A DNA stretch of 64,000 bases from Isurus oxyrinchus (GCA_026770705.1 JANJGN010000034.1:4030001-4094000), one strand, 5' to 3'. Positions 11,950-54,560 are shown, numbered from the stretch's first letter. Numbers and translations are program-made. Notes: a model not told the origin generated them from the sequence alone.

Positions 11950-12160
11950 CGGATTGGAGACATGGCACGTTTTAGAATGAGAAAATAAAATGTAGGATTA
12001 ATAAGAGGATGCTCTTGCACCCAGCACATGGTTTCCACTAGAGCACATCGATAAGAAATATCAAGAGTACAATGCACCCTTGGACCTATGCTTTATTGAC
12101 TTGAGCAATGCTTCTGAGAGACAAACTTCACCGTTAATCTGGAAAATGATCTCATCCTAT
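11950..12160 (+). mobile_element. RTE-like LINE RT fragment
   Basis: EYNAPLDLCFIDLSNAS at ~12065-12115 resembles the RTE motif E(Y/F)NxPLYxCFIDxxKAFD. Confidence 0.5.
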
Positions 12161-12199
12161 GAAGGATATAAGAGTAGAGGAGTGTCGGTAGATCTGTAT

Positions 12200-14210: not shown

Positions 14211-14246
14211 AAATAAAGAACTATCTGAAAGCTTCAGCTGATGCAG
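14211..14246 (+). CDS. Candidate 36-nt phase-1/phase-1 micro-exon, (E)IKNYLKASADA
   Basis: Strong CTACTTTTTTCCCCCAG acceptor and CAG|GTAAAA donor, open frame. Confidence 0.45.
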
Positions 14247-16643: not shown

Positions 16644-16667
16644 AACTAAGAAGCTGCATAGAACTGA
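16644..16667 (+). CDS. Candidate 24-nt phase-1/phase-1 micro-exon, (E)LRSCIEL
   Basis: TTGATTTCCAG acceptor, A|GTGAGT donor, open frame. Confidence 0.3.
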
Positions 16668-17065
16668 GTGAGTAATACAGCAATGTGAATATAAAATATA
16701 CAAAAAAACCGTTGCTTTTGGTAAAAATTTCCATTTATGTTTCAGAGGTGATCTAGCATGAAATGAGTTGTTTCACATTCCCTGATTTAAAATTATTGAT
16801 ACCATACACACTGATAGAGTAGCAGCTCTTCATTGATGACACATAAACGTGTGAAAAATGGAAAAATATCCAGAGTGGGAAAGTGCTTTGTACATGTGCG
16901 TAAATACTGTTTCAACTGGGAGTGTTCCTGCCTGTGTAATACAACAGGAGAGTTGCTATCTCTGAAGCTGCGACAATGTAAACACACAGAGCTTTAAATA
17001 TTGTCCATCCCTGTTAAGCCTTCAGATTTGAGGTCTTAACTGAATTGATTGTCAATTTCAATCAG

Positions 17066-17095
17066 GTGTCAAGAAAAAAGCCCGAGTGAGAAGAG
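17066..17095 (+). CDS. Candidate 30-nt phase-1/phase-1 micro-exon, xVKKKARVRR
   Basis: TTTCAATCAG acceptor, GAG|GTAAGG donor, open polybasic frame. Confidence 0.4.
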
Positions 17096-18829
17096 GTAAG
17101 GAATGTACAAAAAAAACGGTGTTGCTTTATTCACGAAATACATGTCATGAATTGTGTCATTAGTTCTCCTCCTTTCTTTCTGTTTTGTTTCGCATTGAAA
17201 TAAAATAACAGGACTATTGTATCATATAGTTTCTATCATATTTTATGCATAAAACATGTTGACATGTGTTTACCTAACTTGCGACATTCACCACGGAGAA
17301 TATACTCCAAATGCTCATTTGGAATATTAGAATGACGCTAAGTGTTCTTGCCGCAAAGAGAAATGTAAGCATGCTTAGCTCAGCAGCAAAAGAGAGGAGT
17401 TGGGTGTTGAGTAGAAAGGAATTAGGGTCACATGCACGCAGGGAGGGATGTTGAATAGTTGATAAATAAACTCACCCAAATTAGAATATTATGAGCACGT
17501 TGGAGTTTATGAACTGTTACGGCACCTTCCCAGCCCCGTTTAACTGTTCGTGTTTTGCTCCCATTAGTTGATTTTAGTTCAGGTTTTCCACTTTGGTTAT
17601 AAATAGCAAACAGACAGTTTTTGAAAAGACAATGAAACGGGAGGCAAACGTCTCTACCTGTCTTCTGCAGAATTGTTTTCATCAGTATACCTCCAGGAAG
17701 CACGCAATTCTGGATCAGATTTTCGGGCAAAATGTGGGTGAAATGAATCAAATAACTTTTATGGGAAAGCTATAAAAAATCACATTCAGGTTACCATGTA
17801 CGTTAGCTATGGAAACTGGAAAGGCTTGTCAAGAAATGATTCTTTAAATGTCCAACTTAAATGGAGTAAGCACGTTAACGATGCAGGTGAGTGGGAATCA
17901 GAGTAACTGATCAATGGTCTGTCTTTAACAGCAAGAAGGATTGGGGAATGGGAGCAGTGTTGGTGGGGGTTACGGGCAAGGATATAATATAAATATCTCC
18001 ATCCATTATTACATAATTGTTGAAAGATGGAGGAGAATTAGGGTGCAATGACTTGGATAAGGTTCATTAAACAATTCCGAACTAGAAGAAAAATGGAAGA
18101 TTCATTGACAAAGTGAATACAAAATAACATCAACAAAGAACAAGTGTGAGAAGGGACTTTCAGCGCACGCAAATTTAAATTGCATCTTCGCTTATGGACA
18201 TAAAATAGTGTTTGAAAGGAAGAAAAGCAGAGTCAGAGTTATTAACGCATTTTCAGGCGATTTAGGATCGGAGGCATGGGAAATGAGTGACTTACCAAAT
18301 TAATTGTTTCAATTTGTTATTAAGGGTTGAATATTCCACCCAAATCGTAGTGAAACCGTCAGCTGAGACAAAGGATGACCAAAAACACAATGGTAAATAC
18401 GAGTTATTAGGAATGCTGTCTGTACGTAAGGTTTATAGTTCAACGTGTTCTATGCGAAGCGTGCAATTAATTAAACGCTGGAAAGACTGTTAATAATTTT
18501 CTAATCATCCTCAGTTGCAGCTCAGTGCTGGGGGAGAGAATGATCCGAAGTCTTCCAGCATTTGTTTGAGTGAAGAATAGTGGAAATGCAGGCCGGGGAT
18601 CTGGTGCACAGACGTTCGGTTTACGTTCAATGTTGGGAAAGATTTCAGTGACAATAATTTGAGACCAAAAAAAAACAGTTGATCGAACAAACATGAATAA
18701 AAGAAACAAATCAAGTAAAGGAATTCTATTATATCCTTTCAACAGCAAATCGATTTTACCTAGACTGCTTGAGATTTTGGATCTAGTTACAGGGGCGGTT
18801 GATCATATTTACACATTTTTTTTAAAGCG

Positions 18830-21420
18830 TAAAGGGAAGACATTTGGCCTATGATTTCTAAAACTGCCACCAGAATAAGCAATTCACTTATTGCAATTCT
18901 CCTGACCTCTACCAAATGACAGTCCATTATTATTTTCGATGCTTCAATTGAATGTTAATCCACCACACTCTAAGGCGGTGAATTCCAGACCTGAAGCACG
19001 TGCTTCCTAAAAGAAAGATAAAGCAACATATCGCATTTCTTCTTTACCAAATTAATTTACATTTTTGCCCTTTCGTTCTCTAACCACTTTAGAGTGGGGA
19101 CAGATTCTCCCTATCTCGTTGTCCAGAGAGCGCATGGTTTTCATTACTTCTATCAAGTCTCCTCTCAGCCTTTCTTCCTCAAGGAAAGCAAGGAACTTTT
19201 CCAATCTATCCTCCTAACTAAAGTTTCTGATTCCTTGAAACATTGTCGTCAATCTTTCTTTTCTTTTTCAGAGTTTATCCCAATGAGTCCATGTTCTTCC
19301 AAAAGTGTGGAGCACAGAACTGGACACAATTCTCCAGCTGAGGCCTAGTTAATGTTTGAAACATTTGCAACATATATTAGCTACATTAACTTCTTACTCT
19401 TGTAAATTATGTCTATGTGTCATAAAGTCTAGTGATACTGCTTGTTATTTTTAGCTCTTTTCCGAGACTGCCCTGCTGCTTTAAATGATGTGCATGTATA
19501 AAACAGAATCCATTTGTTCCTGAGGACCCTGAAATGTAGTTCCTTCGGGTTATATTGCCTTTCAACGTTTTCATTCACAAACTGAATCACTTCATATTTT
19601 TGAATATTTAATTTCATCTGCCACATGTCAGCCCATTCACCCAGCTTGTCTATGGCCTTTTTAAGTCTTCAAGGTGAGTGGCTTGGAGCGGAGATTCAAG
19701 GTTTCAAATTCCCATGTATCTACTGTCCTTGACCTTCTTGTTGTTAGTTGTCATTTCTTTGGCAGCTGCTGCCATAGGATGCTTGTTGAGTGTCTGCAAT
19801 GCTCCTTGTAAATTGTATGCACTGCTGCCACGATTTGTCGGCAATGGAGGTAATGACTATTTCGGGAAGGAAGGCCAATCAATCGGGTGGTGTTGTACTT
19901 GATGGTTACAAGCTTCTTGAGTGTTTCTGGAACTGCACTGATGCAGGCATGTGGTGAGTTTTCCATCAAATAACGGACCTGTGCTTTGTAGTCGGTGGTC
20001 AGGTGTTGGGAAGCAGGAGACGTGCTAGTCGCCGCATGTTTCCTTGACTTTGACCTGTTCTTGTAGCTATAGGGATGGCATGGCTTGTCCTGTTCAGCTT
20101 CTGCAAATCGTAATCCCCATGATGTGGACAATGGGGGATGTAACAATGGAAGTTCATTGAATATCAAGGTGCGATGCTTTGTTTTTCTCTTGTTGGAGAT
20201 TGCCATTGCCATTGCCAGGACACTGTTTGGTGTGAATGTTATTTGTCCCTTTTCAGCTGAAGCCTGGTAATGTCCAGGTCTTGCTGGGTTTGCTCAAGGG
20301 CTGTCCATTTCTTACAGATCAGTTCGTAACATTTTTAAATTTACTTCCCCTCGGTTATATATCTTTTAATCTGTATTGCACTTTGTCCTTTTCCGTGACT
20401 TTTGGAAAACATGGAATTCAATCATCGCTATGCACTAAATGTTCTTCATATGAAACTTGTTCCATTTTCCCGACCTCACACCCAAGAATCAAATCTAGCA
20501 CTGCCCATTTTTTTCTTGTTGAGGTGAAAATAAGCAGCTGCAGCAAATATTCATATATGCAGTCGAGGAATACTTTCCCCCTCTGTGCCCATTAAACACA
20601 TATTATCCCATTCTTTATTTGAGCAAGCATCAGCCCAGATATCCTTCTGGAACCTATCAATAATTTGCTTGCCATTCTGCCAATTTTTTTATCCTTTACT
20701 CTAGTTGGTGCCCTATGGAATACACAGCTAAGTTTGCTTATGCCTTTCTTGTCCATTACCTCAGGCCAAGTATATGAAGCCCTTGAACCCGCTGGACTCC
20801 AGCTTTCAGCAAGAGTGCAAACATATTCTAAATCAATACGGCCTGCTCTCCTCCTTTGCTTCCTTTCCGAACTTTCCTGAATACATTGTATACAGGAATA
20901 TAGCGTATGCATTATTGTATTTCATTGAGCCAGGTCTCTGTTATAGCCCTAATATAATTTTATAAATATTTCATTCACACCTGTAATTCAAAAATCACAT
21001 TTCCTCTTTTGTTGCATTCACATACATGCCCAATAGTCATCAATTAAGTTTGAACCCAACTGTTTTATTCGGACCCTACAATTAACATATTATTCAATAT
21101 TCTAACGTTATTTCCAGAGCACGATGAGCATTTTCTTCCCCTCTGATATCGTCATCTTGTTACCATAACTATCAAAGTAAATTTGAACCCTCCACAACAT
21201 CATCAGCAAAACGTGCTACAATTAACTCAATGCAGGCTTAATTTAGTTGCGCTCAATCTGGCCTACACAGTTCTCATCTCCACCACAACCTTTCTGGATA
21301 GATGAAGATTCTAAATGTATTCATACTGCACGATATTTTCTAGAACATATGCATCTACATATATCCACTTATTTACATGCAAATGCAAGGGATACTGGAA
21401 ATAAATGTGAGATTCCTAAT
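18830..21420 (-). mobile_element. Nested decayed CR1 fragments, with a second CR1-clade family at ~19670-20300
   Basis: ORF track WQMKLNIQKYEVIQF (cf. WQMxFNxxKCEVIHF). Segment 19670-20300 is the reverse complement of the family at 23900-24400. Confidence 0.65.
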
Positions 21421-22199
21421 TTCCAGTTTGGTTGCTAATTCTCGCCCCACCTCCCTCCCCACGCCCCACCCCCCACTCCATTCCCTAAGTTCTAAGTGCT
21501 ATACATCATCGATCTTCTTGCCCGTAATCTTACTACCAATGTGGCACATTAATACCAGTTGTTCACCACCCCAACTCTGTATGCTTTGTTGTAGCTTAGT
21601 TAAATCATTGATAATAATAACAGAGATGAACACACTATCCTGGATTCACATCTGCGCCTAGCTATTGTTGTAACTATCGAATTTCCTTTCTCTCTTGCTC
21701 TTTCCATCTTCCCTGTACCGCCCTGACCAGCTGTGCTACTTGTGGTGCTACAGGCGTTTCTCCGGCTGGACTCTCCAAGTAATCAACCAATGTCATCAAA
21801 ACTCGGAACTGACTCCTTTCTGGACATGGCGATGCAAACCACGCACTCCTGTATTATATTATCTTTTGGCTATTCATTGCCACTCTGCCTGCAAATTTTA
21901 AAGCTGACAGTGGACTGAATATATAAACGTAGATCTCCCCGCCACACTGGTGTATCGCAGTGACGTCAGCTGCACAGAAATATCTGAAACCGGCAGCTCA
22001 AAAAGGTGAAACTAATGACAACGACCTGGCCAAATAGTTGTGAATGCATGGGGGATGACGTGGATTTCCTACATAGCACCTGGTCTTTGAAACGCATGAC
22101 GTTACATTACATCAGGTGAAACTTGGGCAAAGAAACATTCAGCTGATAATTATGTACATTTTCCTTCTTAGTCTTCTGTAATCTTCAATGTTGAACCAT

Positions 22200-24730
22200 A
22201 CTTTGAGGAAGCATTGAGAGTGGCAAGGGCGTAGAGGTTACTTTGTGTAGTTGGGTTCAATCATCAAGATTCCCTCGGTAACACGAGTAAAGACCGAGGT
22301 GTTGAGTCCTAAAGGGCATAGCTGTTAGTCTGGTTCTGGGTAGGTGGTGACTGAACCAACAGGAGGGAGAAATAAACTTGACCTCACCTTCACCAACCTA
22401 CCTGCCACAGAAGTACCTGTCCATTAGCCTATTCGTCGCAGAGGCCACCTCAATATCCGTGTGGAGGCGAAATTCCAGTTTATCAATCAGGATTCCCTCC
22501 ATCGTGTTGCCTCACTCTACCACAATTCTAGGTAGCATATATTTCGAATAAACATTACACCTCATGAATGCACACCCATGAGCCGCTGTGGGCCACTACC
22601 CACAGAAGCAGAGATTTACTCAACTACAACCAGTGGACTCGTGGATCGGCATATTTACAACTATACCATTACCACATACCCTCCTGCATTTTTCCTTGAC
22701 CCCCGCTTGACCACTTGCAAGTGATCAAGCAGGGGTCAATGAAAAGTGCAGGAGGGTATGTCAGGAGCAGAACCAGGCATAATGCCAAAGATTAGGTGTC
22801 ATTCTGGTGAAGCAACAACACAAGAATACTTCAGTGCCAAGCAGCGTAAGCGGCCAGTGTCCTCAATTGCTGTGTGATTCAGCAGACAACAGAGCAGTTC
22901 AAAGCTCTGCAGCCCATTGCCATTCAGTCACGAATTGCTTTGGCCCATTAAACAACTCATGGAGGGGGAGACACCATATATGTCCCTACCCTAAAAGATG
23001 TGTTTGTTAGGGCAGTGGTGGAGAGGGAGCTCTTCAGTCAAAAAAAATGCCTGCAGCATAGTAAACATTCTTCAGTCAAAAATGTCGATTGGATGATCCA
23101 TTTAGCCACCCCAGTAGGTGTTCAGCTTCATGGATGCTGGACTTCAGCCCATTCGATTCACTCCACGGGATACCAAGAAACGGCACAAGGCAAAATATAC
23201 TGTAAAGGTTATGGGCACTGACAATATTCTGGCAATGCTCCTGAAGACTTGTGGTCCAGATCTTGCAACGCTCTTACCAAAGCTCTTCCAGTACATCTAC
23301 AACACTGGCATTTATGCGGAAATGTGCAAATAAGCCCAGTCAGCTTCTTTTTTATTAGATGCAGTGCAAAACAAACCGGACAATTAGGGCCACATCCTCC
23401 TGCTCTTGAAAATACGCAAAGTTTTGGAAGGGGTCATGTATACTCCGATAATGCGGCATTTACTTAAAAAAAACCTTCTCCCTGATGTTCAGTTTTGGTG
23501 CGCCTGAGCAACTCAGCTCCTGTCCTGATTGCACCCTTGGTTAAAACATCGACAAGAGTCTGAAAACCAGAGGCGAGGTGAGAGTATCTGCATTTGACAT
23601 CAAGAATCATTTAAGCTAATGTGCCATCAAGAAGCCCAAGTAAATCTGGAGTCAATGAGAATCAGGAGCCATGCCTTGCACACAGGATGATTGTATTGGT
23701 ACTTGGAGGTCAATCAACACAGTTCCTGAGTATCATTGCAGGATTTCCTAAGGTTGGGCTCTAGACCCAACCATCTTCAAATACTTCGTCAATGAGCTTT
23801 CTTCCATCCTAAAGTCAGACGTTCGTATGTTCACTCATGATTGCATAATGCTCAGCATCATTCAGAACTCGCATATATTGAAGCTGCCCATGTCCAAATG
23901 TGGTAAGTCCTGAACATTGTTCGAGAGTGAGCTGATAAGTAACTAGTGTCATTCCTGCCATTGAAACGCCAGGCAAAGGCCATCGCCACCAGCCGAGGCC
24001 ATAACTATCGCCTATTGATATTCAGTGGCATTAAAATCGCTGAAATTCAACGAACAACATCCTGGGGATTGCCATTGACCAACAACTGAAATAGACTAGC
24101 CACATAATTACTTAGCCAAAAGCAGAGGTCAGAGGTTTGCAATACTAATTCGATGTCTGAAATCTTGCACCCCCTTTCCCACACCTCCAAAAGCTGCCCA
24201 TCATCTACAATGCACATCCCAGGAATATGATGGAATACTGACCATATGACAGAATGAGTGCAGCTCTAAAAAGACCCAGGGATCTTGACATCATGTCACA
24301 TAAGGGCACCAACAAGACTGGCACCTTATTCACAAACATTATTGCCATCCACAAATGACACGTTTTAGCAGCAGTGTGCAACATATGCAATATGAGCTAT
24401 TAGAACTCAGCAAGTCTCGTTAGACATGATCTTCTGAACCCAAGACTGCTACCATTTAGATTGACCAGAACAGCAGATGGCTGGGACACTAGTACCTTGA
24501 TGTTCCCTCAGGTCGCTCAACACCCTGGCTTGTATATCTTTGTTGTCTCACTGTCGCTGAGTCAAATTCCTGGAACTCATGACCCCAATGCACTGTATGT
24601 GCAGCTCAAAGCATGCACTGCATTGGCTCAAGGATGCAGTTTATTAACACCTTCTCATGGGCAATTAGGGATGCAGAATCAATGCTGGTTTAACCAAGGA
24701 CGCCAACATTCCAAGAATGATTCTTTAAAA
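22200..24730 (+). mobile_element. Decayed CR1-clade LINE ORF2 (endonuclease remnant, RT, 3' UTR)
   Basis: KVMGTDNILAMLLKTCGPDLATLLPKLFQYIYNTGIY (ORF 23118-23333); SAFDIK and MFTHDC (degenerate FADD) RT motifs; family-typical 3' tail at ~24660-24730. Confidence 0.8.
22674..22761. repeat. 88-bp spacerless inverted repeat (44-bp arms, 40/44 matched)
   Basis: ACATACCCTCCTGCA...CACTTG|CAAGTG...TGCAGGAGGGTATGT, with the centre between 22717 and 22718. Confidence 0.95.
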
Positions 24731-30685: not shown

Positions 30686-31039
30686 TAGGGAGGTTTGTAG
30701 AAGAGTCTGCATGAGCAAGTTAGCATAAAATGTGTTGATAGCAATCCATTACGAAGTTATGATGAAACCTGAGGCTGCAACTTGAAATTGAAGATAAAAC
30801 TTTTGCCTTCGTTCTAATTGTCCCTCGACAGATCAGCCCTTTGGCATATTCCAGCTAGCACACATCTGAATTGAAACATATTCAAGTCAGTGAATTTTTC
30901 TAATGTTACAGCTTTAGCTGTGGACAAAGTCAGCAGGTGGAGTACAGCTACATTATTAGGGAAAGGAATTTATCTTGCATTGAATCTTTTCATCAGAAAC
31001 GTGTAGAATTGGTGGGGTCAACTTAAGCAGGGGTAAAAA

Positions 31040-31090
31040 TAAAAAAAAGAAAAACTGCGGATGCTGGAAATCCAAAGGGATTCAGCAGGG
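31040..31090 (-). mobile_element. Short 3'-terminal fragment of the Neptune-type PLE
   Basis: AAAACTGCGGATGCTGGAAATCCAAA is identical to the left-arm tip at ~49526-49551. Confidence 0.75.
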
Positions 31091-37750: not shown

Positions 37751-40497
37751 CCTTCAGCTTCTCTTAAATGTTGTTACAAAATGATTTGCTCTAAAACAAA
37801 TGCCTGGATATGGGTCGTCATTTTGTCTTCAGCCTACCTCGCGTTACCAATCTTTTTACTGTCAGAACCTTTTGGCAGCTCAAAGCAGCTGACTGCCTTA
37901 TAAAAAGGAGGGATAATGCGATATTTAAATATGATCAGGCAGGATGGACCGGGGAGTGTCGAGCGGACAGTCAACGTGGGAGTGCGGGTAGCCGTGTCAA
38001 CGATTTTTGGTGGGCATCAGTCAGTTTGTCATGATGCTAATCGAGTGCGGTGGATAGATCAGTGGCCAGGAAGCTTTTGTTCTATTCGGGTGGTGTTTGG
38101 CGACTGTGGTTGAGTTTCGGATAATTTCTGCGGTGGAAATGGAGAGTGGGCTGTATAGCCAGATGGACATAGCCTTGGGGTTCCGAGGTTCACCCGTGCT
38201 GTGGAATAGCAGCCAGTGTAAAGCTGGGGATGTTTGGGGGCGGGGGTAGTCAGCAGTGAGTACGTGTGCTTGATATTGTTGCGTTAACGGGATGATACAG
38301 AGGATATTTAAGGGAATTTCAGAACGAGGGAGGTGGAGGGTGGCGGTGGAAGTTGGAGTTACGTGGTTGTGGGAATTATTCGAGGCGTTCTTGGTTAGTA
38401 GTCACAGGTGTGGCGTTTCCCTGGGTGTGAAGAGATTCGACGCCTGGGACCGGAGATCTGGGTATTCGGTAGGGTGGGTGAAAGATTTCGGTTGGAGAGG
38501 TTTCGCAGTTAGTCATAGGGTGGAGGCTACGTTTGGGGTGGGAATAGTCAGAGCCGGAGAGAGCAGTCGGATGGTTAGAAGTGGAGTCGTTTTATGCAAT
38601 TGTGTGTCAGGCTGCACCATAGAACTGTAGTCATCTGCTGCTAGAAATGATTATTCTTCTCAATTTTCTTGGGTCGCGATCGCCTACACGTGTGGTTTGT
38701 ATTTAATCTTTGTAAACAAAAGTACGTCTTCCACTACAAAACAAATTCCTTGCAAAAAGTGCGTGATCTTTGCACCTCTGAGTGGAACAAGGGGACGACT
38801 GGGCATTAATAGTGCCTACGTTCGCACTAATTGGCTTCCTCTTTCGTCTACCTGATGACTATAAGCCTTTTGAACGTATATTCCATGCTGTGAGAAAGCT
38901 CATGTTACTTTGGGCAACTGATTCTCCCATTTCCCATTTAACAATACTGGGCACGATGATGAAAAGCAAACCCTGGATTTACAGTCTTCCAAACTTTCTC
39001 TGGGTTTATCCCTGCCCTGGTTTGATTAGTAACTGTACTGTAATGATATCCGAAGCAAGTAGGGTTGACTTGTCAGGTTTTTGTTTCTGATTAGACATGC
39101 TTCTGCAAATGTCCACTTTCCATAATCCAAGTTCATGTGTCATAAAGCCTCGGAATACTAATGTAGAGTCTTTTGTAAAATAGTATCTTACTCGGAGAAG
39201 GTGGTGCTAAAGTTAAACTGACCCTCTGCTATCAAAATGCCTTTTATTTTTCATCAAAGCATTCCCACACCTCAATATCGCTCTCAATATTAGTCCACAT
39301 TCCCTCCAAGGTTAAAGGGCCTTAGTTCACGAATGCTTTTTTTTACTGAACTATTCAAGTTGTGGTTTCCTCCATTTGATAATGGAGCAGATTTTGCCTT
39401 CTGCCACCGATATAGCATTTTATACTATGTTCATAAGGGTGCTCAGTTGCTGAGCATCTTTTTTCCTTGAATGGTTCATTATCCTGAAGATGAGAGCCGA
39501 TTGTGTTGACTACAGGATTTAGGGCTTGCAGCCCAGAATGGTCGGGTTAGTCCATTGGTTACAGCCATTACCAGGGCGAACTGGGAAAGCAGGTGCACTG
39601 ACCTCTTGCCATAGGAACCTCTGCTGGGGCATTGTTCAGCGCGTTATTGACTCCCGTGCTGGTTCTAATGCAGTCATATATGTGAGGCAGGTGAACTAAT
39701 TCCCTCATTGCTGGCATCATGATTCATTTGATGGTCATTCAGGATAACTCTGAGCGCCCTCCACGACTCAAGTTATGCTTAAGCAATTTATTTTGAATGG
39801 AACTACAGTTTATGAGTGGTATCTCTGAATGGACTCTTTCGTTGCCTTGAGTGCAAATTGGAGTTGTTGTTAAGTGTGGTTTCGAATTATGATGTTCTGC
39901 CTCAAAATCTTTGATATTGTGTCTCAAATTGAATTGAGCATTTGTCGCACTGCCATTACTTCCAGATTGTGAAGGTAGTTCATGGTGGCTGAATATGTAA
40001 GAATGCGGCTCGCTTTAATATTAGTGTAGTAAATGATACTTAGAAGGGATTTGCAAAAACGACGGTAAAGAACCAAATTCGTTCATCTTAGACAAGTATG
40101 ATACTCTATTTAGAAGGTGGTTAATACGATATCCCAAAACGGGAAACTGATTAATATAAATTCTATTATTACTAGATTCTCACACCCTTGCAATGGGGAG
40201 AGAGGGCGAGATAATGAGAGAGAGGGAGAGTGAGAGCGACAGATTGGAAGATAGAGACCGATAAAAAAGAGCGGAGCCATGATGAATGAAACTTCGAAGA
40301 ATATTAGCATAAATGTTGGCAATTAGACTGAACTAGCGTCCCAACTTGATTGTTTTCAAATGTTGTTTTTCACCTTCTTGACAACGAAGCGTCATGGGTA
40401 ATCCTTTGCTATTAGTCATGTCGCAAATTTACACTCAATGTTACTTACAGACACAATGATAAATGCTTCACAAGAATAATTTATTTTCCATTTTCAG

Positions 40498-40518
40498 ATT
40501 TAAAGAAGAAGGAAGAAG
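40498..40518 (+). CDS. 21-nt heptad micro-exon, (D)LKKKEE
   Basis: CCATTTTCAG|ATTTAAAGAAGAAGGAAGAAG|GTAAATGCAG; phase 1/1; conserved across three copies. Confidence 0.65.
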
Positions 40519-42689
40519 GTAAATGCAGAAATGAAGAAATCAAATCTGGAATTTAAATATGATTATTGACAAGATTGTATTTTGATGGCCACGGTATTAG
40601 GAACTGCTTCCGCTTAGGGTCACTGATTATGAAAAATGTGATGTGAATGTAATCTTTGTAAACATACGTACATCGTCCCCAACCATGAGAACCTGTTACA
40701 AAAGTTAGTGATCTTAGTGTCTCAGAGAGGAACATGGGGGAGACTCAACATTCATAATGCCTATTGGCGTACTCCCTGGCTTCCAATGTTGCCTAGCTAA
40801 TGGAAATAAGTCATTTGAACGTATATTCCATGCTCTGACAAATCTCAGGTATCCTGAAGGAAGTTATTTTGGGCTACTGATTTTCCCATTTCCCGTTAAA
40901 CCTTACTAGGCAAGCTCATGAGGAACTAAGTCTAAATTGCCAGTGTTCCCTTCCTTCATCTGGGCAAGTACATATGACATAACGCTTCGACTGCATAAGT
41001 ATCTTTTTGTTTTAATTGAAATAGCAGCTTACACTGATAACGACTTTAAATTTACATTCACGTGCTGCTATCAAAATGCATTTCTTTTTTCAGCAATTCT
41101 ATTTCACGCTTCATGATTATCCTCAAAAATAGTTCACATTATATACAAGGACACAGGACTTTCAATGAACTATTCTTTTTTTAACTATTCATGCTTGTGA
41201 TTTCTTTATGCCCAAATGTAGCAGAATTTACCTCCTGCCGCCAGTATTGCATTTTCTATTATGACTAAACGGGTAGTCAGCTGCAGCAGAGAATCTGTCC
41301 TTTGATTGCACTTTTTCCTCAGACTGAAAAGCGCTTTTAATTGGAAACGTGATTTTATTTTTGCAGTCTAACAACAGAGCATCGTGGGGCTAAGGCCATT
41401 GGTTACAGCCATTACCAGGGCGTAATGGGAAAGCTGTTGCAGTGACATATTCCGTCTGTGACTCCAGCTGTGTCATTTTTCAGCAAATTATTGACTGCAG
41501 TCTTGGATGTATTGGAGTCCTATATGTGAGACAGGTGAAATAATTCCCTGAGTGGAGAGATCTTGATTTCTTTGAAGAGCATTCACGACAACTCCGAACA
41601 ACCTCCACGTCTCCAGTAATCTTGAAGCAATTTAAATTGTCTAGACCTACAGATTATGGATGTGGTCGCTGAATGGACGCTTTTTTTTTACCTTGAGGAA
41701 GAATTGGATGTGTCGTGACTGTTGCTTTAAAATATCTTGACTTGTCGCAAGAACTTTGACATTGTAACACACGTTTTCTCGAGCATTTGTCACGATACTG
41801 AACTACATTACTACCCTGTGAAGAAGATTCATGGCGGCTAATTGCATATTTTCTGTTTGTAACCTTCGAACTTTTGTGGATAAGTGCAGAATTTGTTAAA
41901 GTTTACATTCAATCATATCATTTCCGTATTTACTTATCGGTTACGTGATGGTTTATTTGTATTTATAAAATAGTAAGAGGCAATTTAAGTTCTTTCGAAA
42001 TAAACTGGTCTTTTTCTTCAAAGATGACATCCTCATCCTGTGCATAGTCTCTAAACTCAGTGGACCCTCATCAATTTCCATTCAGCGCGATACTGGGAGC
42101 TTCCCAAATGTCCTGAATCAAAATTCTCAACGTAGAGTTGGAAACGGGCAAGCATTCATCCTGGAGAAATTGATGTTTTCCGTGTCACACTGCCTTTCCT
42201 GTTTCTCCAGTTCAGTCGATAACCAGTTCCTTCTTCACCCTTCTGAGATGTAGTTTTTCTCCCTCTAACTCAACATTACTTTCCACTAACCAGTTGCTAC
42301 TTTAAAACATAAACATATCCTCACGGTTTGTTGGGCTTGCTGTAGTTCTCACATCATTGGTTTTGTCTCTCTGAATCTAGCAGCTGTTGAAGAAAGGTTA
42401 CAAATTTGGTTCCATTAATTTTCACAACTGTTTCTTCCCCTGTGAAACAATCGTTTTAGCTTTTATATAACGGGATCACAAGTTATATAACAATGTGTCC
42501 TGCATCAAAAGTGAGGCCGTACAAGTTACAATCAATGGACAGAGTCAATTGGGGGCAATGATGCAGAAGTTTTTTTTTTGCACAAGAATGCTGCTCTATT
42601 TAGAATATGTTTGAAATGATATACCACAAGGGGGAACTTAATGAATATAAATTGCTATCATTTCTAGGATCACAAACTCTAACAATGAA

Positions 42690-42745
42690 CAGAGAGCTAG
42701 AGAGGGAGAGAGAGAGAGAGGGAGAGAGAGAGAGAGAGAGAGAGG
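42690..42745. repeat. (GA)n microsatellite (part of the array unit)
   Basis: Seen directly. Confidence 0.9.
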
Positions 42746-42971
42746 AGGCATGATGGGTGAATCCTGTGGAGACATTAGCATAAATACTCGCCTTTACATT
42801 GAAATTGCGTCCCTACGTGATTATTAGTAAACATCGTTTACCAACTTCTCAATAAGGAAGTGTCAGGGATGTTGCATTCCTATCAGTCAAGTCTTCATTT
42901 TTGACTCATAGTTACTTGCAGGCAGAAGCTAAATGTTTCGCAAGCACCATTTTATTTCTTACCATTTTCAG

Positions 42972-42992
42972 AATTAAAGGTGAAGGAAGAAG
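42972..42992 (+). CDS. 21-nt heptad micro-exon, (E)LKVKEE
   Basis: CCATTTTCAG|AATTAAAGGTGAAGGAAGAAG|GTAAATGCAG. Confidence 0.65.
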
Positions 42993-45310
42993 GTAAATGC
43001 AGAATTTAAGAAACCAAATCCAGGAATTAAGTCTGAATATAGACAAGGTTGTCTTTTTATGGGGATGGTAGTTAGAACTGTTTCTGCTGAGGATCGTTAA
43101 CTGCTGAATGTCTGGTGTGCATGTAACCTTGGAAACATAAATGCGTCTTCCACAACCATGATGAACTCTTGTGTTTTATTTTTGTTGTGTTCTATGTTTC
43201 TCTAAGAGGAAGAAGAAGAAGACTGGGCTTTCATAGTGCTTACAGTCGTACTACCTGGCTTCCACATTCACCTAGCTAATAGCTATAAGACATTCAAATG
43301 CATATTCTATGCTCTGAGAAATGTCATGTTTCTTGAAGGATGATATTTTGGGCTACTGATTCTTCAATTTGCCGTTTATCATTACTGGGCAAGTTTATGA
43401 AGAACTAAATCTAAGTTGAACGCATTCCATTCCTTCCACAGGGTTTATATGTGCCCTGGTTAGCAGTATTGCAAATCTGCCGGAAGAAAGAAGGGCTGCC
43501 TCGTCAGAAATTTGTTTCACCTTATCTTCTTCGGTTGAAACGTCCACGTTCCTTCTCCCAAGTGACTTTGAAATATTGCTTACTAGTGCATCCATATCGT
43601 TTTTTATAGATTTAAAATAGTAGCGTCCTCTGATAAGGTGGCCTTACTTTAGATAGATTTGTTGCTATCAAGTTGCATTATTTTTTTTCCACAAAGGTTT
43701 CTCAAATTTCATGGTCATACTTAAAATTGAGCCACAGTCTCCCCAAGGTGAAAATACCTTCATTCATTAATTCTTTTTTTTTAACTTAAGTACCCATACT
43801 TGTGGGTTCTACTTGCAATAATGGAACAAGTTTTACTTCTAGACGCCGATATCACGTTTTCAACTCTATTCACATGGATGGTCAGTTGCAGAAGGTCTTT
43901 CTTCAATCTATGGTTCCGTTCCCTGTGGCTGAGCAGCGGTTTTGTTCACTACCGGATTTTGGGTTTGCGGTTGAATCGAAGATTTTCGGGTTAAGGACAA
44001 TGGTTACGGTCTATAGCAGGGTAAACTAGGAAAGCAGGTGCAGAGAGCTTTTGGAGTACTATCCCTTGCTGTGGCACCGCTCAGCGAGTTATTGACTACA
44101 GTTCTCGTTGTTATGCACTCAAATAAGTTCAAAAGGTGAAATAGTGTCCTTATTGCGGAGATCGTGATCCTTTTGTCGGTCATTTACAGCAACTCCGAAC
44201 AGCATCCACACCGCAAGTTATCCTTCAGTTATTTAATTCCTGTACAACCACTGCTTTTGGGTGGTTTTGCAGAATGGAGCGTTCAGATTCTGGGCTTGCA
44301 AATTGGACGTGTCGTGGCTATTGAGGTTGTGATTCATTTCTTGAGTATTTATCATGCTTCCGGGCTTCATAACTGCCAGATTGTGAACGTGATTCATGGC
44401 GGCAGAAGGCGAGTATTCTGTTCAAAGCTCTATTACTTGCGTGGTTAAAGGTCGAATTTATTCAAGTTTATGTCCAACCCTTTCCTTTCTATGCTTAGCA
44501 ATTATTTCAGAGCATTTTTAAATCGTTTTATAAAATAGCCAGGGGCAATTTCTGTTCTGTCAAAATAACGTGTTCTCTTTGATGTCTTCTTCGTACTACG
44601 CGCAGTTTCTAAACGCAATCAACCCTCAGCAGTTTCCACTCAACGCGAACCTGAAAGCTCCACAAAATGTACTTAATCAAAACTCTCGATAGGGAGCCGG
44701 AAATGGACAACAAATTATTCCACAAAAATCGATGCCATCCACATCATAGTTGCTTTCCAGTCTTTACTGGAAATTCGATAACCAATTCCTTCTCTGTCTT
44801 TCATGTGAAGATATTTTATCCCGCCAACTCCACGTTTTTTGCCTGAACGAATTCCAATTTGAAATGTAAACATATTGTCACGGTTTCTTTGTGCTTGATG
44901 TCACTCTCACATTACGGAGATGGGGGTTCACCTCCCTGAATCTAGCGTTCAATGAGATTGCATACAAACATTAATTTTCTCTCTGCAATATTTGCTTTAG
45001 CACTTATATAACGAGACCCCAAGTTGGGCGGTGATTATGTAAGAATATGGTGCACATTCAATTTTAGAACCTACAAGGCATGCTCAAAGGGTTTGGTCAA
45101 TCAAAATGAAAGTCGCATCTATTAGTCAAGAATACTGTAAAATTTAGAGTGTGTTTAATATGATTTCCGTATTTGGAAACATACTGATCTAAAATGCTAT
45201 AATTAGTAGACTAAAAACTCTTATATTGGAGGAAGAGAGATAAAGAAAAAGAGAGAGAGAGAGAGCAAAGCCATGATGGGTAATCCTTTTGGGAATATTT
45301 TCATAAATGT

Positions 45311-45370
45311 TGACCTTCACATCGAACCTACGTCCCTTTTTGACCTTCACATCGAACCTACGTCCCTTTT
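45311..45370. repeat. Perfect 30-bp tandem duplication
   Basis: TGACCTTCACATCGAACCTACGTCCCTTTT occurs twice in tandem. Confidence 0.95.
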
Positions 45371-45520
45371 TGATTGTTAATAAACTTAGCTTTCCAACGT
45401 CTCGACAAAATAATGTTATCTGTGTCGTTTTCTCTCAGTCATGTTTAGATTTTCTCTGAATGTTACTTGCAGACAGAATGTTTAATGCTTCACAGGAACG
45501 ATTTCTTTTTCCATTTTCAG

Positions 45521-45541
45521 AATTAAAGAAGAAGGAAGAAG
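45521..45541 (+). CDS. 21-nt heptad micro-exon, (E)LKKKEE, with a GC donor
   Basis: CCATTTTCAG|AATTAAAGAAGAAGGAAGAAG|GCAAATGCAG. Confidence 0.55.
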
Positions 45542-45779
45542 GCAAATGCAGAATTGTAGAAAACAATCATTGAACTGAAATCTGGTTCTTGACAAAATTG
45601 TGTTTTGGTGGCGATGAAGGTGGGAACTTTTTCCGCCAAAGTTTTGCAACCATCTGTGCGCAACGGCAAATATTAGGATAAGTTGGAACAATTTCTACGC
45701 AGGCAAGAGCAAAAAAAAAGAAAACCCTGTGTTTGAATACTTGTCACGTTTCTTTTTGTTGAAACAGGGCTTTGGCTCA

Positions 45780-48319: not shown

Positions 48320-49280
48320 AATTACAGAATAACAGTGCATAAGAGGCCGTTCGGCCCATCGAGTCTACACTGACACGTGATAAACACCTGACCTACCTAT
48401 CTAATCCCACTTACCAGCACTTGACCTGTAGTATTGAATGTTATGACGTGACGAGTGCTCATTCAAGTACTTTTTCATATGGTGCGACACAACCCACTGC
48501 CAGCACCCTCCCTTGTAGTGCATTCCAGACAGTCACCACACTCTGGGTACAAAGGTTTTTCCTCACATTCTCCCTAAACGTCCTGCCCTTACCCTTATAT
48601 TTAGTCCCCCAGGTGACTGACCCTTCAACTAAGGAAAATAGGTGATCCCTATCGAACCTGTCCATGTCCCTCATAAACTTGTACACCTCGATTAGATCAC
48701 ACCTCTGTCTTCTCTGCTCCCACTGAAAGCTCAAGTCTATCGAACATTTCATCATAACTTAATTGTTTCAGCCCAGGCAACATCCTGATGAATCTCCTCT
48801 ACACCCCGTTCAATGCAACCCATCTTTCTTGTAATGTGGCGACCAGAACTGCATGTGGTACGCCTGCTGTGGCCTCACCAAGGTTCTATACAATTGCAAC
48901 ATTCCCCCCCTACTTTAATAATCTATGCCTCAATTGATAAAGTCACCTGTCCTATTGTCCTTTTGTACCACACCATTAACATGCCTCTCCACCTTAATGA
49001 GATGTATGGACACTCAGGTCAAGATCGTTTTCTTCCTCAGAACTTCCTATTGCCATACCGTTAACTGAATACTTCCTGGTAAAATTACTCCTTCCAAAGT
49101 GTATCACCTCACACTTTTTAGGGTTAAATTCCATCTACCACGTAACTGCCCCTTTGGCTCATTCAGTCTATATCTTCCCCTAGCCCAAGAAACCCAAGCT
49201 CACTGTTAACCACCCGGCCAGTCTTTGTGTCATCCAGAAACTTACTATCCATATTCCACACATAGCCATTTAAGTTGTTT
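48320..49280 (-). mobile_element. CR1 3' fragment
   Basis: ORF 48459-48755 EQRRQRCDLIEVYKFMRDMDR...TQSVVTVWNAL is a classic CR1 ORF2 C-terminus. Confidence 0.9.
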
Positions 49281-49500
49281 ATATATATCAAGCTTAATGC
49301 GGAGCAATGAAAGTACGTGACCGTCCTTTCTGCAAATCCATGGAAATAGGCCTCATTGCAAAACTAAATGACAAGCTCAAATTTAGAACCTGTATAAAGT
49401 TTAGCTCATTGCGTATTAATAAGGAAATGTTATGGAATTGCGGAATAATGTCTGATGTTGGACAATAGTTTTGCAGCTTTTGAACAATGACCTGGTGAGG

Positions 49501-49515
49501 TGCCATCTGTATCAT
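49501..49515 (+). repeat. Left 15-bp target-site duplication TGCCATCTGTATCAT
   Basis: Identical copy at 52865-52879, immediately flanking the palindrome. Confidence 0.95.
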
Positions 49516-49612
49516 AAAAACAAAGAAAACTGCGGATGCTGGAAATCCAAAACAAAAACAGAATTACCTGGAAAAACTCAGCAGGTCTGGCAGCATTGAG
49601 GGAGAAGAAAAG

Positions 49613-49651
49613 AGTTGACATTTCGAGTCCTCATGACCCTTCGACAGAACT
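49613..49651 (-). ncRNA. Minimal type-I hammerhead-like motif (left arm, CpG-decayed)
   Basis: Minus strand reads AGTT-CTGTCGA-A-GGGTC-atgag-GACTC-GAAATGTC-AACT. Confidence 0.45.
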
Positions 49652-50041
49652 TGATTTCGAGTCCAAGAAAGAGTTGAAATATAAGCTGGTTTAAGGTGTG
49701 TGTGTGGGGGGGCGGAGAGAGAGAGAGAGACAGAGGTGCTTGTGTAGACAAACAAGCAGTGATAGAAGCAGATCATCAAAAGATGTCAGTGACAATGGTA
49801 CAAAAGAACACATAGGTGTTAAAATTAAAGTTGGTGATATTATCTAAACGAATGTGCTAATTAAGAATGGATGGTAGGGCACTCAAGGTACAGCTCTAGT
49901 GGGGGTGGGGGGAGCATAAAAGATTTTAAAATATTTAAAAATAATGGAAATAGGTGGGAAAAGAAAAATCTATAAAATTTATAGGGAAAAAAAGGGGAAA
50001 AAAGGGGGAAACAGAAAGGGGGTGGGGATGGGGGAGGGAGC

Positions 50042-51178
50042 TCACGACCTAAAGTTATTGAATTCAATATTCAGACCGGAAGGCTGTAAGGTGCCTAGTC
50101 GGAAGATGAGGTGTTGTTCCTCCAGTTTGCGTTGGGCTTCACTGGAATAATGCAGTAAGCCAAGGACAGACATGTGGGCAAGAGAGCACGGTGGAGTGTT
50201 AAAATGGCAAGCGACAGGGAGGTTTGGGTCATTCTTGCGGACAGACCGCAGGTGTTCTGCAAAGCGGTCGCCCAGTTTACGTTTGGTCTCTCCAATGTAG
50301 AGGAGACCACATTGGGAGCAACGAATGCAGTAGACTAAGTTGGGGGAAATGCAAGTGAAATGCTGCTTCACTTGAAAGGAGTGTTTGGGCCCTTGGACGG
50401 TGAGGAGAGAGGAAGTGAAGGGGCAGGTGTTACATCTTTTGCGTGGGCATGGGGTGGTGCCATAGGAGGGGGTTGAGGACTAGGGGGTGATGGAGGAGTG
50501 GACCAGGGTGTCCCGGAGGGAGCGATCCCTACGGAATGCCGATAAGGGGGGTGAAGGGAAGATGTGTTTGGTGGTGGCATCATGCTGGAGTTGGCGGAAA
50601 TGGCGAAGGATGATCCTTTGAATGCGGAGGCTGGTGGGGTGATAAGTGAGGACAAGGGGGACCCTATCATGTTTCTGGGAGGGAGGAGAAGGCGTGAGGG
50701 CGGATGCGCGGGAGATGGGCCGGACACGGTTGAGGGCCCTGTCAACGACCATCGGTGGAAAACCTCGGTTAAGGAAGAAGGAGGACATGTCAGAGGAACC
50801 GTTTTTGAAGGTAGCATCATCGGAACAGATGCGACGAAGGCGAAGGAACTGGGAGAATGGGATGGAGTCCTTACAGGAAGCGGGGTGTGAGGAGCTGTAG
50901 TCGAGGTAGCTGTGGGAGTCGGTGGGTTTGTAATGGATATTGGTGGACAGTCTATCACCAGAGATTGAGACAGAGAGGTCAAGGAAGGGAAGGGAAGTGT
51001 CAGAGATGGACCACGTGAAAATGATGGAGGGGTGGAGATTGGAAGCAAAATTAATAAATTTTTCCAAGTCCAAACGAGAGCATGAAGCGGCACCGAAGTA
51101 ATCATCGATGTACCGGAGAAAAAGTTGTGGAAGGGGGCCGGGGTAGGACTGCAACAAGGAATGTTCCACATATCCCAT
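50042..51178 (-). pseudogene. PLE RT C-terminal half, Cys linker and GIY-YIG endonuclease, one in-frame TAG (50480-50482)
   Basis: FLRYIDDYF, LPFLDL, CPRKRCNTC, NLVYCIRCSQCGLLYIGET...EH...GLN; the two ORF-track pieces are in the same frame. Confidence 0.92.
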
Positions 51179-51209
51179 AAAGAGATATGACAGCTATGCC
51201 TGTCTCTTT

Positions 51210-52346
51210 ATGGGATATGTGGAACATTCCTTGTTGCAGTCCTACCCCGGCCCCCTTCCACAACTTTTTCTCCGGTACATCGATGATTACTTCGGTGCCG
51301 CTTCATGCTCTCGTCGGGACTTGGAAAAATTTATTAATTTTGCTTCCAATCTCCACCCCTCCATCATTTTCACGTGGTCCATCTCTGACACTTCCCTTCC
51401 CTTCCTTGACCTCTCTGTCTCAATCTCTGGTGATAGACTGTCCACCAATATCCATTACAAACCCACCGACTCCCACAGCTACCTCGACTACAGCTCCTCA
51501 CACCCCGCTTCCTGTAAGGACTCCATCCCATTCTCCCAGTTCCTTCACCTTCGTCGCATCTGTTCCGATGATGCTACCTTCAAAAACGGTTCCTCTGACA
51601 TGTCCTCCTTCTTCCTTAACCGAGGTTTTCCACCGATGGTCGTTGACAGGGCCCTCAACCGTGTCCGGCCCATCTCCCGCGCATCCGCCCTCACGCCTTC
51701 TCCTCCCTCCCAGAAACATGATAGGGTCCCCCTTGTCCTCACTTATCACCCCACCAGCCTCCGCATTCAAAGGATCATCCTCCGCCATTTCCGCCAACTC
51801 CAGCATGATGCCACCACCAAACACATCTTCCCTTCACCCACCTTATCGGCAATCCGTAGGGATCGCTCCCTCCGGGACACCCTGGTCCACTCCTCCATCA
51901 CCCCCTAGTCCTCAACCCCCTCCTATGGCACCACCCCATGCCCACGCAAAAGATGTAACACCTGCCCCTTCACTTCCTCTCTCCTCACCGTCCAAGGGCC
52001 CAAACACTCCTTTCAAGTGAAGCAGCATTTCACTTGCATTTCCCCCAACTTAGTCTACTGCATTCGTTGCTCCCAATGTGGTCTCCTCTACATTGGAGAG
52101 ACCAAACGTAAACTGGGCGACCGCTTTGCAGAACACCTGCGGTCTGTCCGCAAGAATGACCCAAACCTCCCTGTCGCTTGCCATTTTAACACTCCACCGT
52201 GCTCTCTTGCCCACATGTCTGTCCTTGGCTTACTGCATTGTTCCAGTGAAGCCCAACGCAAACTGGAGGAACAACACCTCATCTTCCGACTAGGCACCTT
52301 ACAGCCTTCCGGTCTGAATATTGAATTCAATAACTTTAGGTCGTGA
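51210..52346 (+). pseudogene. PLE RT C-terminal half, Cys linker and GIY-YIG endonuclease, one in-frame TAG (51906-51908)
   Basis: Same motifs as the left arm; 52017-51210 = 807 nt, so both ORFs share a frame. Confidence 0.92.
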
Positions 52347-52767
52347 GCTCCCTCCCCCATCCCCACCCCCTTTCTGTTTCCCCCTTTTTTCCCCCTTTTT
52401 TTCCCTATAAATTTTATAGATTTTTCTTTTCCCACCTATTTCCATTATTTTTAAATATTTTAAAATCTTTTATGCTCCCCCCACCCCCACTAGAGCTGTA
52501 CCTTGAGTGCCCTACCATCCATTCTTAATTAGCACATTCGTTTAGATAATATCACCAACTTTAATTTTAACACCTATGTGTTCTTTTGTACCATTGTCAC
52601 TGACATCTTTTGATGATCTGCTTCTATCACTGCTTGTTTGTCTACACAAGCACCTCTGTCTCTCTCTCTCTCTCCGCCCCCGCCCCCCCCCCCCCCCCCC
52701 CCCGCCCCCCCACACACACACACCTTAAACCAGCTTATATTTCAACTCTTTCTTGGACTCGAAATCA

Positions 52768-52806
52768 AGTTCTGTCGAAGGGTCATGAGGACCCGAAACG
52801 TCAACT
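52768..52806 (+). ncRNA. Minimal type-I hammerhead-like motif (right arm)
   Basis: Stem I AGTT/AACT, core CTGTCGA(A), stem II GGGTC/GACCC, then GAAACGTC with palindromic ACGT in place of helix III. Confidence 0.55.
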
Positions 52807-52864
52807 CTTTTCTTCTCTGCCGATGCTGCCAGACCTGCTGAGTTTTTCCAGGTAATTCTGTTTT

Positions 52865-52879
52865 TGCCATCTGTATCAT
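52865..52879 (+). repeat. Right 15-bp target-site duplication
   Basis: TGCCATCTGTATCAT, identical to 49501-49515. Confidence 0.95.
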
Positions 52880-52919: not shown

Positions 52920-54560
52920 CAGAAAAAAAATAAACTCAGAGACCAGGAGCAGGATTCGGCCTTCGAGCCTTCTCTGCCATTCATATGATCCTGACTGATC
53001 CTCCAACTTAATAGCTTGTTCCCACTTTCTCCCCATACCGTTGGTTCCTTTCATCCCAAAAATATGTGGAACTACTCCTTGAAAGACTACAATATTTTGG
53101 TTTCAACGAATTTCTGTGGTACCGAATTCCTGATGCTCAGCACATTCTGTGTGAAGACATTTCTCTTCTTCTCTGAACTAAATGGCCAAATCCATATCTG
53201 CAGACTGTGGCACCTGCTTCTGGTCTTCCCCACCATCAGGACCTTCCTTCCTGCAATCAAACTGTCTGATCCTGTTAGAGGTTTCTACGTTTCTATGAGA
53301 CGCCCCCTCATTCTTCTGAACTATCTTGAATATAATACTAATCGACTGAATTTCTCCTGATACCTAAGTCCCGCCATCTCAGGAATCAATCGAGTAAACT
53401 TTCGCTGCACTCCCACGATAGCAAGTACATCCTTTCTCAGATAAGGAGACAAAATATGCAGGAAATATTACAGCTGTTGTCTCATCAAGCCCCTGTACAA
53501 TTGCAGAAAGACAATGCTATTCCTGTACTCGAATTATTTGTCTATGAAGGCCAACATATAATTGCCATCTTTACCGTCTCCTGAACCAGCATGCTTACGT
53601 TCAGCGATGGGTGTGCAAGGACACCCATATCTCTTTGCACATTTCCCTCTCTCAATTTATAGCCAATAAGATAATAAACTATCTTGCTGTTTTAGCTATC
53701 AAATGCATAACCTCACAGTTATCCACATTTTACTGCATCTCCCATGCATTTGCCCGCTCACTCAGTTTGTCCCGATCACACTGATGCATTTCTGCATCCT
53801 CCTCACTGCTCACCCTCCCACCTAGCCTTTTGTCATCTGCAAATGTGGAAATATTACATTTAATTCCCTTATCTAAATCATTAGTATATATTGTGAATAA
53901 CTGCCGTCTGGCACTGATCCATGCAGTAACCCATCAAAAACTGCCTGCCATTCGGATAAATATCTATTTATTCTCGCTCTTTCTTTGCAGTCTGCCGACC
54001 AGTTTTCTATGCATCTCAGTACAGTACCCCTAACCCAATGCTCTTTAGTGTTACACGCCAATCTCTTAATTGGGCCTTGGTCGAATGCCTTCTGAATGTC
54101 GATGTAAACCACATCCACTGGAACCCCCTCATCGACTCTAGCAATTACATCCTCAAAAATGTCCAGTGGATCAGTCATGCATGACTTTCCTGTCATACAT
54201 CGATGCTGACTCTGTCTGATTCTGCTGCTGTTTTCCACGTGCTCAGCTATTAATTATTTTACAATGGACTCCAGAATTTTTTCCCCACTACCGATACCAG
54301 GCCGTCTGGTCTATAATTCCCTTTTATATCTCTTCTTCCTTTTTTCTTAATCGGGGTTACATTTACTATCCTCCAATCATTAGGAGCTGTTCCAAAGTCT
54401 ATAGAATCACGGAAGATGCATCCCCTTTTTTCTACAGCCACTTCCTTAATTAGCCAGGGATGTAGATTATGAGCTCCTGGGGATTTATCGTCTTTCAAGC
54501 CCATCAATTTGACCAACACCAATTCCAAAGTAATAGTAATATCGTTCATTTCCTCCCCCT
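52920..54560 (-). mobile_element. CR1 ORF2 RT region to 3' end
   Basis: KSPGAHNLHPWLIKEVA, NDWRIVNVTPIKKKG, GNYRP, VDVVYIDIQKAFD in the ORF track. Confidence 0.92.

Follow-up and report, generated by a model that had tools for sequence, protein, structure and literature searches.

Structure of the locus

The 64-kb window analysed here (the whole 64,000-nucleotide stretch JANJGN010000034.1:4030001-4094000 of the Isurus oxyrinchus assembly GCA_026770705.1) contains a head-to-head palindrome of two 5'-truncated copies of a Penelope-like element (PLE), bounded by one 15-bp target-site duplication (TSD). That the two copies face outward with their 3' ends, as the original prediction held, was confirmed by aligning the arms (49553-51185 on the minus strand against 51203-52866 on the plus strand), which differ by 14 substitutions in 1,633 columns (99.1% identity), by 30 nt within a C-rich microsatellite and by a 1-nt indel. 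The predicted TSD was also borne out, as TGCCATCTGTATCAT occurs exactly twice in the window, at 49501-49515 and 52865-52879, while the longest word common to random pairs of 30-nt zones never exceeded 10 nt (n = 4,987 pairs). The insert between the TSD copies occupies 49516-52864 (3,349 nt). Its left arm carries the 37 extra 3' bases, and its right arm shares with the TSD the outer TG, that had been described for them. The left flank (49313-49454) is single-copy by read depth. The main features are as follows.

49501-49515, plus strand: left TSD copy, 15 bp, TGCCATCTGTATCAT
49516-51185, minus strand: left arm, a 5'-truncated PLE with the end of reverse transcriptase (RT) motif 4, thumb, Cys linker, GIY-YIG domain, 3' untranslated region, hammerhead-like motif and tail
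49516-49552, minus strand: 37-nt PLE tail, left arm only
49553-49626, minus strand: distal 74 nt of the segment shared by the arms, with 6 of the 14 arm substitutions; likely copied together with the tail from a second template
49608-49651, minus strand: minimal hammerhead-like motif of the left arm, core CUGUCGA, with the CpG after GAAA decayed
50480-50482, minus strand: in-frame stop between RT and endonuclease, the same in both arms
51186-51190: five extra central bases on the left side of the hairpin, register ambiguous within 51184-51190
51189-51204: central hairpin, 5-bp stem GACAG/CTGTC (3 bp family-encoded CAG/CTG, 2 bp not family sense) and a 6-nt loop at 51194-51199
51191-52866, plus strand: right arm, the same 5'-truncated PLE, from the Ser of the GPSYA motif to a tail-less 3' end whose TG is common with the TSD
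51909-52346, plus strand: Cys linker (CX4CX2C) and GIY-YIG endonuclease frame (motifs; Pfam PF01541 at 23.6 bits, cut-off 22.6)
52768-52805, plus strand: minimal hammerhead-like motif of the right arm, read from the sequence with a predicted fold
52865-52879, plus strand: right TSD copy, 15 bp, TGCCATCTGTATCAT

The locus thus combines an inverted 5'-truncated copy with a one-sided tail of 30-40 nt inside a TSD, and it has no direct tandem of the kind that forms a pseudo-long terminal repeat (pseudo-LTR). Go-back joints do occur in contigs of the family, and they suggest that PLE tandems exist elsewhere. The palindrome is a young example of a known PLE insertion architecture in its simplest form.

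Coding content and classification

The coding part of each arm covers the second half of an RT, followed by a CX4CX2C linker and a GIY-YIG domain, with RT and the C-terminal GIY-YIG domain in one frame that is broken by a single stop. The 5' truncation point falls within the GPSYA motif, and the RT motifs from SYA to YIDD are present. Because a Pfam profile search found no family for the RT fragment, its identity was taken from comparison with homologous RT proteins, to which it is 53-68% identical. Among 162 longer homologues, the seven best are proteins of Rhincodon, Stegostoma, Mobula, Hypanus and Chiloscyllium (whale shark, zebra shark, rays and bamboo shark); they are 59-67% identical, cover 93-99% of the RT-thumb fragment and point to an elasmobranch as the likely host. 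These elasmobranch PLE-type proteins share the GPSYA and YIDD motifs with the palindrome element, but belong to other species and other families.

In the endonuclease, the two cysteines of the CCHH motif lie between the GIY and YIG parts, in the segment VYCIRCSQCGLLYIG, and the downstream histidines at frame positions 76 and 92 presumably belong to it. Together these features mark the element, as judged from its sequence, as an endonuclease-bearing PLE. The linker, CPRKRCNTC, stands upstream of GIY-YIG, and a CX2-5CxxC linker is also found in 72 of the 75 endonuclease-core homologues (among 120 homologues). The presence of the linker had been read as a fit to the Neptune clade. The linker itself stood; the clade assignment by the linker did not, because such linkers are common to Neptune, which is paraphyletic there, and Nematis (PMC8557442; this and the other papers cited are represented by excerpts). 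The Cys linker alone therefore does not place the element in Neptune, although membership is plausible.

The hammerhead-like motif is predicted to fold into stems I and II, and its GAAA and GUC site are in place. The canonical hammerhead core is CUGANGA, from which the core found here, CUGUCGA, departs. An Rfam search at E values up to 5 gave no hammerhead match, and the predicted folds of the motif and of the tail stem were not better than those of shuffled sequences. Below-threshold Rfam matches to microRNAs and small nucleolar RNAs, the best of them on the central hairpin, were rejected as chance. A hammerhead motif just upstream of the tail is usual for PLEs, according to the part of PMC6155905 that deals with it.

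Family abundance

Reads were mapped to 49100-51202 (left flank, left arm and spacer) from 4 of 18 listed runs, comprising two contig sets of one sample, possibly the source of the assembly, and two raw Illumina runs (X5 and X6) of another sample, of which about 4% of the reads were used. The results below draw on the best 40 of 204 rows of differences, the best 15 of 1,134 joints and the best 6 loose ends per run. Depth was about 10,000-22,000 across the open reading frame (ORF), about 66,000 in the tail region and 0-1 in the flank. With a left-flank depth of about 1 in X5 and 0 in X6, coverage is too low to show an empty allele. The ORF depth corresponds, very roughly and assuming a genome of 3-6 Gb, to 22,000-46,000 copies, and most family reads are 90-99% alike to the window sequence.

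The tail and hammerhead region (49526-49651) has a depth several-fold above that of the ORF, and loose ends at 49596 and 49651 belong to other subfamilies that have only this 3' end in common. This suggests a large population of short or non-autonomous elements with the same 3' end. Near that end, opposite-strand joints at 49596 and 49650/49651 are supported by 55-92 reads per row and run, with three of the four rows also found in contigs; they are probably short palindromic copies of related subfamilies. An exact pattern scan for the family 3' end returned no loci in metagenome contigs and none in viral contigs.

The 37-nt tail and the two 3' ends of the family

The 37 extra bases of the left arm had been put forward as an obstacle to copying by fold-back alone. 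The asymmetry is real, yet it is no peculiarity of this locus. Among the best 6 loose ends per run, family reads end near 49526 in large numbers (22,542 in X5 and 22,374 in X6), and tail-less family ends lie near 49549/49551 (7,100 + 4,708 = 11,808 in X5 and 7,216 + 4,717 = 11,933 in X6); both classes run on into unlike sequence of low agreement. The right arm ends at the equivalent of 49553. Because family reads end both with and without the tail, the asymmetry is that of the two ordinary end classes of the family, i.e., the known PLE tail. This tail is described as an optional extension of 30-40 bp, often at one end only, and is credited to endonuclease resolution in the relevant section of PMC8557442. 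In Adineta Pen2a, as described in PMC3846280, the tail measures 31 bp and is present on one inverted pseudo-LTR, within a TSD of 9 bp. In the in-vitro experiments excerpted from PMC11167929, a purified PLE protein that nicks and extends both target strands has two RT start sites, and the tail corresponds to the segment between them.

A lone PLE tail lies elsewhere in the window, at 31031-31076 on the minus strand, with 26 nt identical to the tail of the left arm followed by a T-rich end. It has a possible 10-bp flanking duplication with one mismatch (CCCTGCTGAA / CCCTGCTTAA), 4 nt from its 5' end, and could represent a minimal insertion for which priming took place at the tail end.

The centre of the palindrome

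Seventeen unpaired bases separate the arms. As the original prediction stated, they consist of TATGA plus 12 nt of element sequence (CAGCTATGCCTG), the latter matching the upstream sequence of the family in reads. About 6,000 reads per raw run pass 51185, and their continuation (agreement 0.95) starts with CAG, followed by the loop complement and GGGG; the family sense sequence of the right arm therefore begins at 51191. The CAG at 51191-51193 thus opens the right arm and also continues the left arm as family sequence, whereas the GA at 51189-51190 is not family sense and pairs with the TC at 51203-51204. The 12-nt difference between the truncation points, as originally described, depends on how the centre is drawn, since CAG serves both arms. 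Given a hairpin at the centre and five inserted bases, this offset is what a fold-back would leave.

For a right-arm complementary DNA (cDNA) that ends at 51191, the predicted fold is precisely this 3-bp hairpin. A terminal hairpin of 3 bp is available at 7.7% of truncation points in the ORF, and its presence here gives fold-back modest backing. Taken with one adjacent base, the five extra bases match a 6-mer at 51214-51219, for which the chance is about 0.05; this is a weak hint of a templated slip. On the bottom strand the loop reads antisense, so the tail-less arm would be the one that folded, unless a later crossover flipped the loop.

Shared rare letters and the distribution of arm differences

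Two letters shared by both arms are rare in the family. The letter at 50189 is absent from about 98% of family reads (8,321 of 8,475 first-mate-plus reads in X5), and that at 50480, which creates the stop, from about 97% (4,236 of 4,358); the left-only changes at 50148 and 50606 are equally rare. Thus, the inner arms have one recent source. Where the arms differ, the left arm has the non-majority letter at at least 8 sites (51073, 51072, 50606, 50148, 49620, 49600, 49599 and 49597). For 5 further sites, the best 40 of 204 difference rows do not include the left position, and there the non-majority letter is presumably that of the right arm; the remaining site lies in the microsatellite.

The substitutions are concentrated at the outer end. 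The distal 74 nt of the shared segment hold 6 (8.1%), against 8 in the other 1,559 nt (0.5%). An end-anchored change-point test gave p = 0.00016 with all 14 substitutions, p = 0.0001 with the 13 that remain when the microsatellite site is dropped, and p = 0.0006 with 11 events (doublets merged and the microsatellite site dropped); an unanchored scan gave p = 0.0007-0.007. The distal divergence of 8% is within the spread among family reads, and CpG density is similar in the two parts (3 per 87 nt and 45 per 1,144 nt). Gene conversion between the arms was set aside as the cause of the distal cluster: it would spread mutations to both arms without reducing their distance to the family majority, and that distance is lower inside as well. 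This argument is soft, as the distal majority consists mostly of other, shorter subfamilies. Two 12-nt matches in the window to the distal letters of the left arm, at 3693 and 30562, were on inspection not element copies. Both adjacent-base double substitutions (51072-51073 and 49599-49600), two cases only, are on the left arm, the presumed copied strand.

Origin of the palindrome

The palindrome very probably arose in one integration event. This part of the original prediction is well supported by the single TSD, by the two shared rare letters and by outer ends that are both of the 3' type, and the single-copy left flank agrees with it. The question that follows is by which route a single event produced two opposed copies. 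We favour, at a probability of about 0.5, a hybrid route in which both target nicks prime and the longer cDNA folds back. The endonuclease would nick both target strands 15 nt apart, and the 3'-OH of the bottom strand would prime at an internal, tail-less start site through the 2-nt TG match, giving a cDNA of about 1.67 kb that becomes the right arm. This cDNA would stop within RT motif 4 and snap back via CTG/CAG with a 6-nt loop, gaining five bases by a slip, and self-copying would yield the inner part of the left arm. The 3'-OH of the top strand would prime at the tail end on another RNA molecule or pseudo-LTR, giving a short cDNA of at least 111 nt (the tail plus 74 nt), after which the complementary strands would anneal and be joined by fill-in and ligation. 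The stop was likely already present in the source copy, or else arose in the first cDNA, so the insert would have been dead on arrival.

Two primings are proposed because the outer ends are 3' ends that coincide, exactly or to within a few bases, with the two 3' ends that recur in the family, and because the purified PLE protein of PMC11167929 nicks and extends both strands; a second template is proposed because divergence steps up in the distal 74 nt. The opposite-strand joints that recur near the family 3' end in raw reads and contigs also count in favour of this route. The hairpin centre and the distal cluster make this hybrid route, which had been suggested from the sequence, the best reading of the locus, though not a proven one. 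Several points weigh against it. The mechanism is drawn from one locus, and the tail-less loose ends of the family lie 2-4 nt from the end of the right arm rather than exactly at it. No joint at the palindrome centre (51185-51203) is among the best 15 of 1,134. The 3-bp stem is weak and suits an intermolecular join equally, and a crossover between the arms would flip the loop and so weaken the argument from its polarity. The shared rare letters could also reflect one source locus or conversion between the arms, and not fold-back alone. As for the distal cluster, it was noticed post hoc. Later ectopic conversion by the very abundant short copies could have produced it, as could local hypermutability, given that 2 of 3 distal CpGs differ between the arms against 2 of 50 inner ones (p = 0.013).

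One alternative is a single priming, in which a cDNA started from the tail end (or synthesised from an antisense RNA) folded back and the second arm was trimmed or stopped at the tail boundary and joined by the 2-nt microhomology. Such an origin accounts for the hairpin and the shared rare letters; it accords with the interpretation in PMC3846280 of junction palindromes as self-priming on an antisense template and with the derivation of the tail in PMC8557442, as far as the excerpts go. The tail is also predicted to pair with upstream sequence and leave the tail-less end in a loop, a fold not better than shuffles (z = -0.40). Copying of sense RNA would, however, give the opposite loop polarity unless the loop was flipped later, the distal cluster is not predicted, and in the PMC11167929 experiments RT starts at either tail boundary and extension takes place on both strands. 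We consider a single priming unlikely. Slightly less probable again is the formation of two long cDNAs, one from each nick, that stopped at nearly the same place (the same RNA 5' end or a pause), were joined by CAG/CTG microhomology with a 5-nt insertion and each templated the second strand of the other. The outer ends, both of the 3' type and matching the two family ends, would fit such a pair, a single RNA or source locus would account for the shared letters, and the centre resembles microhomology end joining with a short, possibly templated insert (the 6-mer repeat noted above). Two stops within about 10 nt would be required, and the arms should be uniformly identical or uniformly divergent, rather than 0.5% apart inside and 8% apart distally.

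The palindrome might instead have been copied as a unit from a palindromic master, or be a later inverted duplication of a single copy, or combine two insertions at the same spot, all of which we regard as improbable. Shared rare letters suit a common source, and low-copy siblings of a master could escape a list confined to the best-supported joints; the centre joint of such a master is missing from that list. A later inverted duplication would not add a tail and is expected to carry flank along, while two insertions should leave two TSDs and unrelated truncation points. Least probable by far is a fold-back artefact of the assembly or of a read. Among the reads and contigs listed none crosses the centre, as such an artefact would have it, but the arms differ at 14 sites, with non-majority letters on the left (8 sites) and presumably on the right (5), and the tail is one-sided, the flanks unlike and the TSD present. 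An artefact of this kind would not leave altered letters on each arm, a tail at one end and a TSD. A contig of set X2 also spans 49207-49537 without difference, though only 22 nt of it lie within the element, which is below the 31-nt rule applied, and X2 is possibly the assembly's own sample.

Whether the hybrid route extends beyond this locus is more doubtful. It is possible, though we would not count on it, that head-to-head PLE insertions in general are two-template chimeras. Equally tentative is the corresponding two-template scheme, in which a tail-less cDNA folds on itself for second-strand synthesis, while at the opposite nick a brief second priming, templated by a different RNA or pseudo-LTR, leaves the tail as its scar. 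If this is the case, one scheme accounts for the inverted copy, for a tail on one side only and for the intact TSD, with no need of the antisense template proposed earlier, and the locus records its two-template origin in the polarity of the loop and in the mosaic of the distal 74 nt. A literature search did not find a route that combines priming at both nicks with fold-back, and older PLE papers could still contain it.

Other repeats in the window

Positions 1-125 hold, on the minus strand, an older PLE copy that belongs to this family or to a sister family and has 85% identity to the thumb and linker region; it is 5'-truncated at about 125 and runs off the start of the window. At 22674-22761 there is an 88-nt palindrome with no spacer and arms that are 91% complementary, which does not match the PLE of the large palindrome. 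Several overlapping direct repeats of 0.3-2.2 kb (62-75% identity, no open frame of 170 amino acids or more) occupy 38691-45636 and are probably decayed tandem copies of a repeat; within 45310-45373 there is a perfect 30-bp tandem duplication. Two decayed frames on the minus strand (48459-48758 and 53873-54253) had no Pfam match, and we take them to resemble RT fragments of long interspersed elements. A near-perfect palindrome of 3.3 kb, such as that formed by the two PLE arms, is a potential fragile site and a potential source of double-stranded RNA.

Comparison with known systems

Inverted PLE structures were known beforehand, as the original prediction stated, and publications already describe 5'-truncated copies in inverted orientation that have a TSD, a tail on one side and palindromes at the junction interpreted as self-priming (excerpts of PMC3846280 and PMC8557442). 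The closest likeness is to Pen2a_Av and the Pen2 derivatives of Adineta vaga described in PMC3846280, which have a copy joined head-to-head at the 5' end, a TSD around the whole unit (8-10 bp there), a 31-bp tail on one inverted end, in-frame stops and junction palindromes taken as self-priming. The present inverted arm differs in being 1.67 kb long with half of the ORF and no direct pseudo-LTR tandem, its TSD is 15 bp, and its hairpin has only 3 family-encoded bp. To account for head-to-head junctions, the model in that part of PMC3846280 had to invoke an antisense template, which is not needed in the hybrid route. The locus also departs from the general PLE architecture outlined for Penelope/Poseidon, Neptune, Nematis and Naiad in PMC8557442 in that it lacks a partial tandem; such direct pseudo-LTRs are common in PLEs and not obligatory.

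The Poseidon element of Anolis carolinensis, as studied in vitro in the excerpted portion of PMC11167929, provides a biochemical parallel. Its tail lies between two RT start sites, to which the two 3' end classes of the palindrome family correspond, and both strands are nicked and extended. Poseidon belongs to a different clade, Penelope/Poseidon, without the Cys linker, and the same portion of that work offers no validation of second-strand synthesis and does not deal with inverted products. The palindrome is a young and clean record of this second-strand step, and its mechanistic value is modest. What it adds is that hairpin polarity and the distal mosaic yield a prediction that can be checked by counting, on a step of PLE transposition that is still open. 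Since the family has tens of thousands of near-identical copies, it should be possible to count genome-wide which arm bears the loop, which bears the tail and how many differences lie near the tail, and the arm counts together with near-tail divergence would test the hybrid route.

There is a further likeness to the twin priming and foldbacks of L1 in the material covered from PMC11702581, where priming is possible from either 3' end of the target, the TSD is retained, microhomology occurs at the junctions and cDNA is able to self-anneal. Twin priming joins adjacent and largely non-overlapping parts of one RNA, and the palindrome differs from it because both arms are the same 3' segment. L1 foldbacks, for their part, are chromosomal rearrangements and not inserts bounded by a TSD, as the PLE palindrome is.

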